From: Octopus vulgaris
Lineage: Eukaryota
Assembly (NCBI GenBank): GCA_951406725.2
Contig: OX597829.1
Coordinates: 7,130,001 to 7,194,000 of the forward strand
Reading direction: 5' to 3'
DNA length: 64,000 nucleotides
The notes under the pieces were generated by a model, which did no database searches, had not been told where the DNA came from, and saw only the letters and a program-made list of their open reading frames with translations. Below, piece after piece: positions 8,098 to 43,430 of this stretch; positions within the stretch are counted from its first letter, which is position 1; every line of letters starts with the position of its first letter. The translations under genes and the position numbers were made by a program.

Positions 8098-8223
8098 ACA
8101 GGTGTGACTGTGTGGCAAGCAGCTTGCTTACCAATCGCATGGATCCGGGATCAGTCTATAGCCTCGGGCCGACCAAAGTTTTGTGAGTGGATTTGGTAGA
8201 CGGAATCTCAAAGACACCAGTTG

Positions 8224-8225
<2 letters not shown>
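8098..8225 (+). mobile_element. tRNA-derived SINE family B, truncated
   Basis: Matches the 5' half of the copy at 44877-45271. Confidence 0.8.
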
Positions 8226-8260
<35 letters not shown>

Positions 8261-13837: not shown

Positions 13838-13969
13838 ATACAAATTTAAAGGACTGAACACGAAAAGTGGTGGACAGTCAACATGCTAGATATAGACGTC
13901 AAATCGCTATTTTCCATCTAGCATGTTGACTGTCCACCACTTTTCGTGTTCAGTCCTTTAAATTTGTAT
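13838..13969. repeat. Perfect 54-bp inverted repeat with 24-nt loop
   Basis: 13838-13891 is the reverse complement of 13916-13969. Confidence 0.95.
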
Positions 13970-14089
13970 GTAAAAATATTTTAATCTTCGGATTCTTTTT
14001 AATATGCTGGGCCACTGGTTTTAATTGACTAATATCAATTTCTACCCTTATTAAATTTTATTAAATTTTATTAAATACATATATATATT

Positions 14090-15262
<1,173 letters not shown>

Positions 15263-16789: not shown

Positions 16790-18440
16790 GTACTTCACTT
16801 CTTTTTTTTTCCTAAAATTTTCGTTGCTTCTTGCAGCCTCTTCAATAGTTTTGACTCTGTCCGTTATTTACACTGCGCTCCCTAACAGCAGACCTTGTTA
16901 GAATAATGAACAATGTGTCCCCACTATGCGAACCCTATGAAATGAAGAAACATATACAAAACTTCATACACCGCATGCAGTTCTCTGGATATGATCGGAA
17001 AGATAGGGTTCGAGTATACAGGGGGTGCTAGACAGAAATTAGATAACATTATACGCAATGATACCAGTGGTACCTGCCCTAGATATTGAAACAAAGAACA
17101 GAATAGAATACAAAGAATGTGTGACAAAGCAAACAGGGCGAACACGTGGTATAAAACCAACAAATATCAAGGAGTGATGCTTGTAGAGGCTACAGTCCAT
17201 GGAGAGCTAGACCGTAGATTTAGAAAAAGCTCTGAAGGAGACCAAACTCAACATTAAAATGTTTGAAATGCCAGGGAACTCCATCAGATCATAACTATGT
17301 AGGACGTACCCCTTTAAGAATACCATATGCGCCAATGATAACTGCATGGTATGTAGGATTAACCCTGGCATTAACTGTAGAACAGCATAAGATGCATAGA
17401 AGGTGCTTGTAAAGACATGAACATGACGTACATAGGGGAGACATCTAGAAGCATGGTGGAACAAATAAATGAACATCTAAGACAATATGACGGCACAAAA
17501 CAGTCCTCCATACTCTACCAACATGCCAGAGACCACCATGGAGGTAACTTGGGTCAACTTGACATCCGCATCTTATCCAAACACCCAAAAGACCCAACAC
17601 TCAGACAAATACGGGAGTACGTCATTATAAATGAAACCTCCCCAATACTAAATAGGAAATATACATAGTAAATACCATACCTCCATACCCACAGTTTACA
17701 CAGGTAGAGTCGAATAGTTTGCGGGCTGTTAGGTAGATAAATGTATGCGTGTGTGTGGGTGGGTGTATGTGTGTATGCACCATACAGTTATGAAAATAAA
17801 CAGATCAACATACAGACGGATAGGTACCCAGGTTACAAGAACAGACACATATGGAGACATGGAGACACACATATAGAGATGCACATCCATACATGCAAAC
17901 ATGGTACATAGTTGCATAACACACACACACAGACATGCACACACAAGGAGACAGAGGTGCATATATATACAAACACATGCTCACACACACATACATAGAA
18001 AATACACAAACACGGACATGCAAGCACATAAATATACAGGATATGTACATACAGATGCACACACATACATACATATATACATATGCATACACACACATAT
18101 ATACATACACATGCAAACGCACATATACATACATACGTACATGTATGCATGTATAAGCACACACACGCACACACACTGACCCACACGCATGTGCACAAAC
18201 AAACAAAAGGGAACGAAGTGTAAATAAGGGACAGAGTCAAGACTATTGAAAAGGTTGCAAGACGCAACGAAAATTTTAGGAAAATAAAAATAAGAAATAA
18301 GTGGAAATTTTACCGGTGAGTGTGTTAAATAATAAGGCACTAAAAGAGAATGACTCTCTCCAGACACAACAGAATAACAGAATAATATGCTTCAACACAC
18401 GAACTCACATAAAGAATCTTGCAAACCAAATCCCAAAACG
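16790..18440 (+). mobile_element. 5'-truncated Penelope-like element: inverted pLTR piece + GIY-YIG region + pLTR
   Basis: ORF 17417-17668 YIGETSRS..EH..H (GIY-YIG); Cys-rich linker CANDNCMVC; 16810-16873 is an inverted copy of 18218-18284. Confidence 0.85.
18243..18279 (+). ncRNA. Minimal hammerhead motif (U3:A8) in Penelope pLTR; inverted copy 16812-16848 has U3:G8
   Basis: CTA-TTGAAAA-G-GTTGC-AAGAC-GCAAC-GAAA-AT-TT-TAG. Confidence 0.6.
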
Positions 18441-19696: not shown

Positions 19697-20530
19697 AATG
19701 CCAACATTAAATGGCATCCATTAGTTCTCCTTTCCAAACTATAAAGTATTCCTTTTTAGAAAGGTCTCACATTAAGCACTGTAATCAGCATCGTCATTCT
19801 TTAGATAATGATTTCTTTTAGATGGGCAAAAGACCAAATTTTGAAAGACAAATCTGTAATGGGTTGCATTAACCTCACTATTATGTTATTAGTACCGAAT
19901 TCCTTGTCCCCACAAGAATGAAATTTAAGTTAGACACCGATATCCTGTTAGTTCTACCATACACGAACGAAAATAAATATTTTAATACATGATTGTTTCA
20001 ATAATATCAAATAATGATTCCTCGTTATGACAACTGATGCAATTTGTAATTTTCGTTGGGATGCATAATCGATTTGTTCAATTCAATATACTTTTAATTG
20101 TTTTTCATCAATCCTGAAACGATAAAAATCAAAATATGTAGCAGCGATTAATTAATTTGGAAGGTGGGAGAAAAGGAAATCCTGTTCTGAGTTCCTCTTT
20201 CTTAATACAAAGAAAATAAACGGAAACAACCAATGTTTTCTCAACTTAGAAACACAGTCACAAATTTGAGGTTAGGACTCCAACCAATTTGCCGGTCAAT
20301 ATTTGATTGTCAATTATCGATCATAAATGTATGGAATCACTGTCGAACACTGCATGATATGAACTCATGACTTAAGTGAATATAAGTATACAGTATTCTG
20401 CCCATCTAAAAGAAATCATTATCTAAAGAATGACGATGCTGATTACAGTGCTTAATGTGAGACCTTTCTAAAAAGGAATACTTTATAGTTTGGAAAGGAG
20501 AACTAATGGATGCCATTTAATGTTGGCATT
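19697..20530. repeat. Apparently perfect ~132-bp inverted repeat with ~570-bp spacer
   Basis: 19697-19828 is the reverse complement of 20399-20530. Confidence 0.93.
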
Positions 20531-20639
20531 CTGTAACAATGAGTTACAAGAAACATTAAGGATAAATTTATTTAGTGTTGTAAATAATCTATATATCATT
20601 ATTTATTATTTATAATTTGTTTATAATTGAAGAAGTTTG

Positions 20640-21805: not shown

Positions 21806-21954
21806 AACAATGTGCTCGAGTAAACAGCAATCGGCGGGTGTTGCTGCTACCCTTATTATTATCATATCGTCTATCATTTCATCTCATTTTGTCCTTGTCC
21901 AGCCCGCAGCTTCCTTTCTGTGTAAGGCCTTCATGGCCAATCTAATGAATAAAA

Positions 21955-22093
21955 GAAGCTTGCTTCCCAAACACATGGTTCGCGGTTCAGTCCCACTGCG
22001 TGGCACCTTGAGCAAGTGTCTTCTACTATAACCTCAGGCCGACTAAAGACGTGTGGGTGGATTTGGTAGACGGAAACTGAAAGAAGCCTGTCG

Positions 22094-22125
<32 letters not shown>

Positions 22126-28479: not shown

Positions 28480-29049
28480 GCTATTACCACCATCTTAATT
28501 GTGTGGATGTTTTTACCGAGATTCTTGTTGTTCTTGATGCTACTCCAGCTAGTGGTTGTGTTGTTGCTCATCTTCGTTCTGCTGATTTCTTTTCATGCAC
28601 ATTTCTTCTTCTTCTTCTTCTTCTTCTTCTTTTTCATCTTTTTCTTCTTTTTCTTCTTCTTCTTCTTCTTCTTCTTATTATTATTATTATTATTCTTTTC
28701 CTCCTCCTCCTCCTCCTCTTCTTCTTCTTCTTCTCCTTCTCCTTCCTCTTCTGTTTACTATTTCTGCGGCTGCTGCTGAAGCTGCTGCTGTTGTCGCTGT
28801 TGCTATTCCTAACGACTAAAAGTAAAATGAGAGGAGGAAAGAGACAGATACAGACAGTATAACACATAAAGCTATTTGCACACACAAAAGGCACACATAT
28901 ACACACTAGAGAAGGAACGAGGAACAAATAAATAAGTAAATAAATGAGTAAAAGACAAGCGTACAAACAATGCAGTAAGCAAACTCATACCAGCACGCAG
29001 TACACACATACCAAGGACATAGACATCTGCACACACACACATACACGTG

Positions 29050-29330
29050 CGCGCATCCAGTTCTTTTTAGCATATCAGATAGAGGTGTCAGTGCCAAGCA
29101 GAAAAGGAGTGGAGAGAGCGTGTCTCCCTGGAATATTCCTCTTCTAATGGAGATGGCTTTGGTTTTCACAAGTTCCTCTTTTGTTTGGAGCTGTAGCACT
29201 GTCTGCCATTTATTTATAGAGTGTCTTATGTATTTCATAATTGTTGGTGCTACCTTGTAAATGGCTGGTGTTTCGAGGATCCACGTGGGGGGAATGTTAT
29301 CAGACGCCTTTCGGTAGTCGATCCAGGCCA
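29050..29330 (-). pseudogene. R4/Dong-type RT fragment
   Basis: AWIDYRKASD..RRGIFQGDTLSPLLFCLALTPLS. Confidence 0.9.
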
Positions 29331-29340
29331 TACACGCACG

Positions 29341-29390
<50 letters not shown>

Positions 29391-30813
29391 CAGATATAAA
29401 CGCAAATGCATGCGCAAATAAGCATACATAACACAGAAAGACAAAAATGGACTAAACGCGTTAAGAAGAAGCACATGTGATAGAGAGGCGCTGAAGACGT
29501 CGTCGTAGGATGTATGACGAAGAAACAAAAAGCTGAACAGAAGACCAAATATATTGTGCGTGCATTTAATTGGTTAGACATAGCTATCCCCAAGTATAAG
29601 AATAATTCTTTCAATACAGAGTTTCACATCAAGAATCTTGCAAACCAAATAAACCTATAGCATATGTGTATATGTTTGTGTGTCTGTCTCTGTGTGTGTG
29701 CGCGCGCGCGTGTGCCAACTAAGCACTTGCGCTGTATATTTGGTCTTCACTTCAGATTTATTATTTTTTTTATTTCTTTGTCAAAGATCTTTACATTACG
29801 CATCCTGTGACCTCTGGGATAAAGAGTCGTTGAAGAGGTCTCAGGATGTGTGTCCAAAGAGCTTTGATAAAGAAACAAATATAATAATAATAAATTTGAG
29901 GTAAAGACCAAACATATGGTGCCTGTGTTTAACTGACAATTTCCCAAGAATAAAAAAATGTAAAAATCCTTCGCTAATATGACTTTGTTTTGAATTTAAA
30001 ATTAACATTTCCAATTTGAATACCATTTATGATATTCTAAATACTAAAAGGATAAATTTTATGATGTTTTAAATCATAAAGGAAAATTACATGCATTGAA
30101 GTACAGCCGTCACTTTTGGCATTTTGTTCCTCGCATTTACTGTTTGCTTTGCTTTCACCTCCATATTAGGGAATTCGACAAAATTCCTCCACACCTTTCA
30201 CTTTACATTCTTACACAAACACAACTAAGCGATCACAAATTGCCTCTCCGTATGGTTCCTTGACATGCAATTAATACCAGCTAAATTTGCATCAAATCGC
30301 ACCCTATCTCTTCAAAAGGAGCATCGCTTTAAGATAAAGTGCAATCGAAAACCTAACGGGTGGTAATTGATGGAACTCCATTGGTGATCTTAAAAATGAT
30401 GGAAGCAGCTTTAATAAACTTCTTTTCCAATGATTTGAGTATCTTTCCTTCTCTAGTAACCGCTACTACATTTTTCGTTGCGTATTATCTACAAGGAATC
30501 TGTTTTAATATTTGCTCTTTTATAGTATTACAGATGATGTACGAGAAACATGTTTCAACCATCATAATGTATATATATGGTCTCTATCCACGCTTACCAC
30601 AAACTTCAATTTCTCTTGTCAGCCATAATATTTTACATTTCTGCATTAACCACTTTCTCGATTCTATCTTCGTACAGAGCGTTAGTCCACTGGAATTCCT
30701 TCCAAGAGCATTTATTTCTTGAAGACTTCGACTTCCACATTTTGAATCCGACTCTACGAACACAATCCTAATCAATCTGAATGTCCAATGATCTGTTATC
30801 TGCACCTATATCT

Positions 30814-33815: not shown

Positions 33816-34765
33816 TGTATAATATGTGTGTGTGCTTGTGCGTAACGTGTCTGTAGATAGCTATCGATATACACACATAAGCATATATATAAATATATAT
33901 ATATATATATATGCATGTGTGTCTCTGTGTATGTGTTTGTATATATATAATCGGAACTCATTTTCCAATTGATCAGTCTAAGTTTTTTTTCTGTTTATTT
34001 TTTGCTTTCTTCTTTTGCCTCCTTTTTTTTTTATCACCTTTTCCTGAAAAATCGATACTATTTTTTCTGTCTCCAGTTTGATTCGTGTTCAGAAAAATGT
34101 GTGAATGATTTATCGATTATGCTTATAGCTTTCTCTGTTGTCAATCGAAGCCATCTCGAAGTTCACGGTCGAATATTTTTGTCAATTCAAGATGCTTTTT
34201 TTTTCTTATGATTTTTTTTTATTATCTTAGTTTTGTATGTATTTTCTTTTCTTCTCTATTGGAGAGGATTATATTGATGTTGCTTTCTCTATGATGATTC
34301 AGATGGTGGTGATGATGATGATGATGACGACGACGAAGGCGACGACAAGACGGAGAAGAGTGGTTTATTGACGATGTTGATCATCATCATCATCATCGTA
34401 ATCATCATCCTCGTCGTCGTCATCATCATCATCATCATCACCATCAATATCATTATCATCATCAATACCGTCATCGTCGTCATCATGATTATCATCATAA
34501 TCTTCATCATCATCGCCGTTGTCATCGCTGTCATTATCGAAGTCTTTTTGTTTCTGTCATCGTCGTCACGTTTATTATTATTATTGTTCTCATTAAGTTA
34601 TGTTCCTCAAGATGATAGAAATGATGATGAAGATATGATGTTGATGCTGGTGATCATAATGCCGTCATCAGCACCATGAACGTATGTATGTATGACGTAT
34701 GTATATATTAGAAAATTACTATCTTTAAATCTGACATTGAGAGATATTCAACCACAGTATTTTGG

Positions 34766-35077
34766 AGTAAAGATTGTTTGCCAACATAACATGGCAGTCC
34801 TGGTTTAGGACGAATGTTGCTGTAATTTAGTCCCAGGAGACATCGTCTCCAGCTGGCTATACAACACCATCTGTGTTCTTATGTTTTCGAACAAGGGAAC
34901 CTGACATACAGATATTGTTTTGAGCTGAGTGGGGGTTGCTAGGATCCTTTGTTCGAAAATATAAGGACACAGATCGTGTCGTATAGCCTGCAGGAGACAA
35001 TGTCTCCTAGGGTTAAATTATAGCAGCATTCGTCCTAAACCAGGACTGCCATGTTATGTTGGCAAACAATCTTTACT
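34766..35077. mobile_element. Foldback MITE with ~137-bp TIRs
   Basis: agtaaagattgtttgccaacataacatggcagtcctggtttaggacgaatg... mirrored at 34941-35077. Confidence 0.9.
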
Positions 35078-35618: not shown

Positions 35619-36450
35619 TCGTATGTGGTCTGATCAATAAGTATCAGAACTGTTGCCATAGTAACGATGCTAAAGCCACTTGGCACAGATTGATTTTCAA
35701 CTCTGCTCTACATGTGGACTAAGTTTTAACATTCTAGCTTACTTCCATTGTTTACTGTAGTTCATGGAATGAAGGTGTATCAGATGTGATCGTCGCATTG
35801 ACCATGACAGAGAAAGTTGAGCTGAGAATCTGCATCAAAATCTTGCCGATACCTGTTCAGAAGCCTATGTAAAGTTTTCAAATAATTTTCATCGTTCTGA
35901 AACCTGAGTGCTTTTGGTTTGCTGGAAGCAATTTTGGCTCAAACTTGGCAGACACGCGTCTCATACCCAAATGGACTGAATTGAACCGTAAATAATCTGC
36001 ACATCCCTTGATAACTCACGGATGGTGATTCGACGAATTCTCCTCACAGATGCTCGCACATCTGCAATGTTTTTCTTAGTTCTGCTGGTTGCGGGTCTCC
36101 AAAAACGTTCGTCAATATCGACATTTTCGGCCATCCTAAAAACATCTGAACCACTTGTACACTTGTGTTCGGCTCATACAATTCTCTCCAAACACTTTCT
36201 CCACCTTTGCATTGGCCTCTGAGCTGGTATCGCCATGACAACTTTTTCTGTCATGGTCAAATCAACGATCACACGTTACACACCTTCCTTCCAAGCACTG
36301 CTGTAAACAGTGGAAGTAAGGTAAAATGTTAATACTTAGTGCGCATGCACAGCAGGGTTCAAGGTAAATCTGTGCCTAGCAAGATTACTCTGTGTACTTT
36401 AGCTTTGTTACTATGGCAATAGTCCTGATACTTATTGATCAAACCTCGTA
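35619..36450. mobile_element. Mariner-derived non-autonomous element built from two inverted 5' ends
   Basis: TIR tgatcaataagtatcag..ttgccatagtaac mirrored at 36405-36450; the transposase start accatgacaga(g/a)aaagt is present on both arms. Confidence 0.85.
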
Positions 36451-42675: not shown

Positions 42676-42906
42676 TTTTGTTTAGAATGGAACAGAAATA
42701 AGGTTATAAGCAAACATATACAATTAATTTAATGGATACACATTTGAAAATGGTCTTGTTTCATTGGTCCTTTCAACTAACAGCAAGCAATTACCAAAAT
42801 TCAGGATAAAATCATCTTATTATGAAATAAAAGAAAACGTCAAATCAAAGGACAGTGTCTAAATACATAAGGTAAATATTTATACGCAAAATATAAATCA
42901 ATTAAT

Positions 42907-42970
<64 letters not shown>

Positions 42971-42972
<2 letters not shown>

Positions 42973-43430
42973 CGTAAAGTGTACTAGCCATCTGAATGTG
43001 GCTAGCCACTGGGGGTGGGGTGTTACTGATGCTTTTAGCCCCAGGCGATCAACGTCACCAGCTGGCCTTAGACACACAATTTCAGTGCCCTTGTGACAGT
43101 GGTTGCTGTGAAAAACGTTAAATATTATTATTTGCAACGGTCTCCTTCATCGAAAACCGGTGTTTACCATGCGTTGACGAGAGGCAATTACCTTGAAACT
43201 ATAGTCCGTATGTATCACTTAGGTTTTCGAGGGAGGATGACCTCCCTTTGCAAATAACACAAGGGCACTGAAATTTTGTGTCTAAGGCCAGCTGGTGACG
43301 TTGATCGCCTGGGGCTAAATGCATCAGTAACACCCCACCCCCAGTGGCTAGCCACATTCAGATGGCTAGTACACTTTACGTTGTCGAGCGGTTACTGTTT
43401 ATATCTCGTTCAGAGATTTATTAATGCTTA
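42971..43430 (+). mobile_element. Retrozyme-like element with 125-bp inverted terminal segment
   Basis: 42971-43095 is the reverse complement of 43258-43382 (2 mismatches); central HHR; (TA)n flanks. Confidence 0.8.
43168..43212 (+). ncRNA. Minimal type I hammerhead ribozyme (U3:G8)
   Basis: CATGCG-TTGACGA-GAGG-CAATTA-CCTT-GAAA-CTATAG-TC-CGTATG. Confidence 0.8.

Follow-up and report, generated by a model that had tools for sequence, protein, structure and literature searches.

The unit at 43 kb of the window, by which we mean the whole 64-kb stretch of Octopus vulgaris DNA that was analysed, is in our reading (which we hold at roughly three chances in four) one copy of a multi-copy animal non-LTR retrozyme of about 360 nt that carries no ORF, is homologous to two other insertions in the window and was likely inserted in trans by the RT and endonuclease of a Penelope-like element (PLE). 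We refer to this unit as u43, to the unit at 14 kb as u14 and to the insertion at 34.7-35.1 kb as u34, and their features are collected in Table 1. The class to which u43 belongs is already described: according to the account of Cervera & de la Peña (2020, PMC7229834), animal non-LTR retrozymes are highly self-paired hammerhead repeats of about 170-400 nt (350-390 bp in mussel), and PLEs are named there as their likely mobiliser. In common with these elements, as described there, u43 has a canonical type I hammerhead in a non-coding, self-paired unit of about 360 nt in which the ribozyme is free to fold, a GC content below 50% and several subfamilies in one genome. It differs from them in that the insertions seen here, with their inverted arm and tail, are dispersed copies of 0.9-1.2 units or truncated ones and were not seen as arrays, and in that the core has U3. 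The word 'inverted' does not occur in the main text of that paper.

Table 1. Features of u43 and of its two homologues, in positions of the window
Position	Strand	Feature	Details and basis
14090..14534	+	Homologous insertion u14	Period 360 nt; 1.24 units long, the last 85 nt being a repeat; ends in (TA)45
34709..34902	-	u34, tailed arm	5'-truncated, 57-nt tail, no hammerhead; nhmmer E 4.9e-14 (34897-34715)
34941..35077	+	u34, tailless arm	Complementarity to the tailed arm 90%; aligned CTTTAC at its end; nhmmer E 3.8e-09 (34947-35077)
42907..42970	.	(CA)13(TA)19 microsatellite, upstream half of target site	Sequence
42971..43095	-	Inverted, 5'-truncated, tailless arm of u43	Copy of 43258-43382, 125 nt, 2 mismatches (98.4%)
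43096..43428	+	Near-complete forward monomer of u43	333 nt of an inferred unit of ~358 nt, no ORF
43128..43257	+	Stem I extension (rod)	Fold z -5.03, pair probabilities, one compensated variant pair
43168..43212	+	Type I hammerhead of u43	Core U3·G8, G·U at stem II base, predicted cut after C43206
43198..43205	+	8-nt palindrome, stem/loop III of u43	Predicted to form only as a dimer of two copies
43351..43366	+	GCCA-N8-TGGC hairpin	Conserved in u43, u14 and u34; the tailless end follows 14-16 nt later
43383..43428	+	46-nt tail, forward arm only	Arm comparison
43429..43463	.	(TA)n(CA)n microsatellite, downstream half of target site	Sequence

The hammerhead and the fold of the unit

The u43 ribozyme is composed of a 6-bp helix I (CATGCG/CGTATG), the core TTGACGA (43174-80), a 4-bp helix II closed by the loop CAATTA and, on its 3' side, GAAA, the palindromic C-TATA-G of helix III and GTC, after whose last residue, C43206, cleavage is predicted. 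A hammerhead descriptor run over both strands of the 64 kb matched this ribozyme and 14273-14302 and nothing else, while loose matches averaged 0.06 over 200 shuffled windows, none of which contained a strict match, with stems as long. Aligned to the Rfam Hammerhead_1 model (RF00163), the ribozyme covers positions 1-45 of 45 with all three stems paired, at 17.1 bits (E 0.056), which lies below the gathering score of 34. No Rfam family was matched at its gathering score anywhere in the window, and an Rfam search at E values up to 10 reported no hammerhead in 42900-43500 or in the 14-kb ribozyme. The sequence itself, the descriptor and the full-length, sub-gathering alignment thus bear out the hammerhead that the first-pass annotation had placed at these positions, together with its core, palindromic loop III and GUC triplet. 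A variant at 43188 yields exactly the loop II of the Rfam model, from which u43 differs in having U3 in place of C3 and a G·U pair at the base of stem II. The choice that had been posed for the core, C3:G8 or U3:A8, describes u43 in neither form, its core being U3·G8.

With its helix lengths and palindromic helix III, u43 has the canonical metazoan hammerhead architecture, unlike the minimal pLTR type, as these types are set out in PMC4209133. Where helix III is short and palindromic, metazoan type I hammerheads are described as cleaving as dimers (PMC4209133; PMC6765202). In u43 stem III has a pair probability of 0.0 in the monomer, and the full hammerhead can be imposed on the monomer at a cost of 5.3 kcal/mol; the predicted self-duplex of the palindrome has -8.6 kcal/mol. 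U3:A8 is given as a known active variant (PMC3088659; PMC4209133) and U3·G8 as a natural hammerhead variant (PMC7151607), and no measurement of the cleavage rate or activity of U3·G8 was found in the literature. Since it combines the U3·G8 core with a G·U pair at 10.1-11.1, the u43 copy may, judging from its sequence, cut poorly.

Stem I is extended as a rod, as had been proposed, and the helices named for it are present in the MFE fold, with pair probabilities of 0.66-1.0 for TCGAAAACC and TTATTTGCAA; an alternative hairpin at 43229-43248 was rejected with a pair probability of 0.0. The forward unit (43096-43430) folds with a z of -4.79, and a self-paired fold that leaves the hammerhead accessible was found (z -4.79 and -6.94). 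No stop-free frame of at least 90 aa overlaps the forward monomer, GC reaches 0.49 in the richest part and is therefore below 50%, and the size of the non-coding unit, about 358-360 nt, lies within the range of about 150-450 nt taken for animal non-LTR retrozymes. The canonical hammerhead and the self-paired, ORF-less, multi-copy unit of about 360 nt around it support the first-pass description of u43 as retrozyme-like.

A hammerhead motif search of metagenome contigs returned three loci (L001-L003) that have nearly the same stem II as u43 and nothing else in common with it, and the same search of viral contigs returned none. The resemblance between loop II of u43 and that of the 14.3-kb ribozyme, to which attention had been drawn, is real, but the metagenome hammerheads, dissimilar elsewhere, carry this loop too, and it is for this reason generic rather than lineage-specific. 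L002 (1-1112) is a retrozyme-like 580-nt tandem repeat on a metagenome contig, with a type I hammerhead, a C3:G8 core and a palindromic loop III; L001 and L003 (2994-3044, minus strand), on two near-identical metagenome contigs, each hold a solo canonical type I hammerhead whose palindromic stem III is of the CGCG type. Within the window, weak minimal-hammerhead-like motifs with deviant cores occur at 49586-49615 and 18246-18276 and are probably due to chance.

Homology and geometry of the three insertions

The first-pass annotation treated u43 and u14 as sequence-unrelated. The two are joined by blastn at the ribozyme only (26 nt, E 0.087), presumably the source of that impression. A global alignment overturns this: the units are collinear, with 189/325 identities (z 8.1) and none of 500 shuffles scoring as high. 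The likeness extends beyond the hammerhead core, as the 3' part without the hammerhead has 116/212 identities (z 6.2, 0/500 shuffles; reverse-complement control z -1.1), and TGACCTCC lies 32 nt past the predicted cut in both; the 5' part taken by itself is not significantly alike (z 1.3, 60/500 shuffles). In a comparison with 2506 pieces of the window as an empirical null, three scored as high, two of them being the u34 locus and the best overlapping the inverted arm itself. The u34 insertion, which blastn misses, was detected with an nhmmer profile built from u43 and u14 only, which gave no match to a reversed decoy, and it is identical to u43 at 112/176 positions (z 9.5) and to u14 at 117/182 (z 8.7). 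Collinear homology and this third insertion argue that u43 and u14 are, at the level of sequence, one diverged lineage rather than a convergent class.

The hammerhead of u14 (14267-14308) has a U3:A8 core. In u14 the last 85 nt recur upstream at a distance of one 360-nt period, the sequence between the two copies being free of ORFs. An inverted arm is absent from u14 itself; u34 consists of two 5'-truncated arms joined head to head. In a consensus structure of the 3' domain, 7 of 25 pairs are changed on both sides among four rows, against 0-2 when the structure is slid; as the independent insertions number three and also supplied the structure, these two-sided changes are only suggestive of a conserved 3' fold. 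When the window was searched with a covariance model of the domain, nothing was added to the family's own copies (best unrelated match E 0.22), and a 3'-domain motif search of metagenome contigs returned no match.

The 125-bp segment that had been noted as duplicated in inverted orientation at the 5' end of u43 is confirmed (42971-43095 against 43258-43382), as is the placement of the whole in (TA)n, whose flanks form a compound tract with CA repeats on either side. The inner end of the inverted arm coincides with the base of the hammerhead rod. All three family insertions end in TA-rich DNA, and both u43 and u34 pair a tailless arm with an opposite arm whose tail of 46-57 nt runs into such DNA. 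Their tailless arms stop at the same aligned CTTTAC motif, 14-16 nt past the GCCA-N8-TGGC hairpin, and the spacer between the inverted arms is 162 nt in u43 versus 38 nt in u34. This hairpin occurs seven times in the window against 0.35 expected, five of the seven being the family copies that supplied the motif; the remaining two belong to the arms of an inverted insertion at 19.7-20.6 kb that is separate from these.

That separate insertion (19697-20588) has arms of about 135 nt, a one-sided tail of about 56 nt into TA and the hairpin near its tailless end. Its similarity to the u43 family is not significant (z 0.2-2.4; E 4.6), and it contains no hammerhead and, in six frames, no credible Pfam match. 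Elsewhere in the window a near-perfect hairpin of about 55 bp, unrelated to the family, lies between (TA)n and u14 (13838-13970) and may be another inverted insertion, and long inverted-repeat elements occur at 63215-63611 (134 nt at 98%) and at 35622-36450 (about 200 nt at 77-81%, MITE-like).

An inverted partial 5' copy was attributed in the first-pass annotation to Penelope-like insertions, and this agrees with the descriptions of Craig (2021, 10.1101/2021.04.23.441226) and Arkhipova (2013, PMC3846280), in which PLE insertions have an adjacent inverted 5'-truncated copy, a one-sided tail of 30-40 bp and a bias for (TA)n. As reported by Frangieh (2024, PMC11167929), a PLE RT starts at two internal RNA sites, the interval between which is the tail, and it cuts AT-rich DNA and uses uncleaved RNA, hammerhead cleavage not being needed. 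The likeness of the insertions described here to those of EN+ PLEs, as far as these are characterised in the cited accounts, lies in the head-to-head inverted 5'-truncated copy, the one-sided tail, the partial tandem, the (TA)n target (described for Neptune and Naiad) and copies unbroken across the hammerhead cut site. They differ in having no RT/GIY-YIG ORF, in tails of 46-57 nt as against the 30-40 published, and in a hammerhead that is canonical and not minimal, Naiads being without hammerheads.

Copies in public sequence runs

The stretch is present in 20 of 24 listed runs, 11 of which hold half or more of its words; they come from nine studies under four organism labels, and one may be the source sample. 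No RNA run is on record among those listed as carrying it. Contigs were compared with the stretch in four of the 24 (X1, X4, X9 and X19), two guessed to be DNA and two RNA. Matching contigs number 1669 and 1756 in the two DNA-guess runs, with dozens of variant positions, and 119 and 66 in the two RNA-guess runs, where contigs cannot show transcription, strand, ends or circularity. The u43 repeat is a multi-copy family.

One X19 contig (depth 8.6) runs from 43429 through 24 further letters into 43096, which gives a unit of about 358 nt, close to the 360 nt of u14. Compared by eye, the joint letters resemble the u14 junction at TTTCTA and AGTGG, and the last three (GTG) equal 43093-43095, possibly a microhomology at the inversion. 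No tandem array or dimer of the u43 subfamily was seen, and the closed unit is given by this one contig together with the period of u14.

Among the variants, A43155G and T43225C (depths 16635 and 16435 in X1) together keep one rod pair, A43201G with T43202C leaves loop III palindromic, and T43194C turns the G·U pair that closes the base of stem II into the usual G-C. The C at 43138 seems confined to the 43-kb copy. Forty of 71 variant rows, which are unphased, were set against the fold: 19 break an MFE pair, seven keep one and 14 are unpaired, with one clean compensatory pair. Sister subfamilies are only partly included in the variant table. T43174C, which would give C3, is absent from the variant rows displayed, and C3 stays below 4% in X4 and X9, where each of the six T>C places is taken by another position. 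G43179A, which converts the core to U3:A8, accounts for 14% of depth in X1, 16% in X4, 55% in X9 and 7% in X19, and since it lies in a CpG it may be decay. On these shares U3·G8 is apparently the majority core state of the u43 subfamily in two of the four runs compared.

Origin and mobilisation

The insertion features just described would also suit the 5'-truncated pLTR end of an autonomous, ORF-bearing PLE with no self-contained replicon of about 360 nt, which we consider unlikely. PLE insertions, as described, are mostly 5'-truncated with an inverted arm and a tail; the window has one hammerhead per insertion and no array; summed depth, which is not a copy number, is far lower over 43096-43143 than over 43396-43419; and 269 contig loose ends beyond those displayed make an upstream ORF conceivable in some copies. 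This explanation has to contend, however, with u14, whose 3' 85 nt recur exactly one 360-nt period upstream with ORF-less sequence between, and with the X19 contig, which closes u43 at about 358 nt through a junction like that of u14. The hammerhead moreover belongs to the type canonical for retrozymes, a reading frame opens past the cut site in PAc but not in u43, and the ORF for RT and GIY-YIG endonuclease expected of an autonomous EN+ PLE was not found.

Very little weight can be given to the proposal, made in the first-pass annotation, that u43 and u14 represent two unrelated families of one size and fold and hence a structurally constrained class of small RNA parasites, because the two are collinear homologues with the same offsets. 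The silence of blastn outside the hammerhead and the lack of significant likeness between the 5' rod strands would fit such convergence, but it does not account for the collinear identity outside the hammerhead or for a third member recovered by a two-sequence profile (E 5e-14) without a decoy match, and hammerhead loci that really are unrelated (L001-L003) share the ribozyme alone, L002 with a period of 580 nt. It is least credible of all that u43 is a MITE-like DNA transposon with a captured hammerhead, the 125-bp arms being its terminal inverted repeats. Insertion at TA and two long, almost identical arms in opposite orientation, with a spacer between them, recall such an element, yet the arms are asymmetric, with the tail outside one of them only, their inner ends vary between insertions, as the two spacer lengths show, and u14 has a direct repeat and lacks an inverted arm.

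On the retrozyme reading that we prefer, tandem copies would be transcribed and paired hammerheads would cut via the palindromic stem III, the monomer perhaps being circularised. A PLE endonuclease would nick (TA)n DNA, and just past the GCCA-N8-TGGC hairpin RT would start at two internal sites, which lie 176 and 222 nt downstream of the cut (231 in u14); two such starts would produce one arm with a tail and one without, in a head-to-head join. The template would have to be circular or uncleaved, because u43 and u14 are unbroken across the cut site and u14 is longer than one unit, and a monomer cut at both ends could not give a copy spanning that site. The short arms reach to the base of the rod or end slightly inside it, which is perhaps a point at which RT stalls.

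No PLE protein was found in the window, and both RT matches among the 30 frames scanned are LINE-type, for which reason the RT fragments of the window were rejected as the PLE partner. They belong to a broken LINE with AP endonuclease and RT domains (52685-55344, minus strand) and to a second, short LINE-type RT fragment (28906-29451, minus strand). The window is also rich in microsatellites and contains, besides the LINE, a SINE-like repeat of about 150 nt in at least six copies (51166-51618, 44877-45044, 21953-22098, 62523-62690 and 8099-8228).

Li, Clavereau & Pollet (2026, 10.64898/2026.07.22.740005) argue that retrozymes derive from PLEs as non-autonomous elements, and base this on their co-occurrence and on homology to pLTRs in a sample given as 31 vertebrates, three insects and one coral, with no mollusc. 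The relation between retrozymes and PLEs that they propose is the one proposed here, and solo monomers are common in their material; the difference is that insertion geometry is not used in their argument as presented there. A literature search that reached a minority of subscription journals and repeat databases brought up no account of retrozymes in cephalopods, nor of retrozyme insertions with a footprint of tail and inversion, although such accounts may exist.

Families of such units are missed by blastn and by Rfam thresholds, yet are found by a two-sequence profile. More tentatively, the insertions may be a direct footprint of PLE machinery copying an animal retrozyme RNA, with RT starting at two fixed sites beside the GCCA-N8-TGGC hairpin, a candidate recognition signal, and reading through an intact cut site; as a subfamily with the weak-looking U3·G8 as its majority core has still spread widely, cleavage may on the same tentative footing be dispensable for spread. 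The link between retrozymes and PLEs has so far consisted in print of co-occurrence and pLTR homology, and to this the copies described here contribute an ORF-less hammerhead unit that bears the PLE footprint of tail and inversion. They also define a candidate region for the start of RT, which could be tested in an existing in vitro PLE assay.
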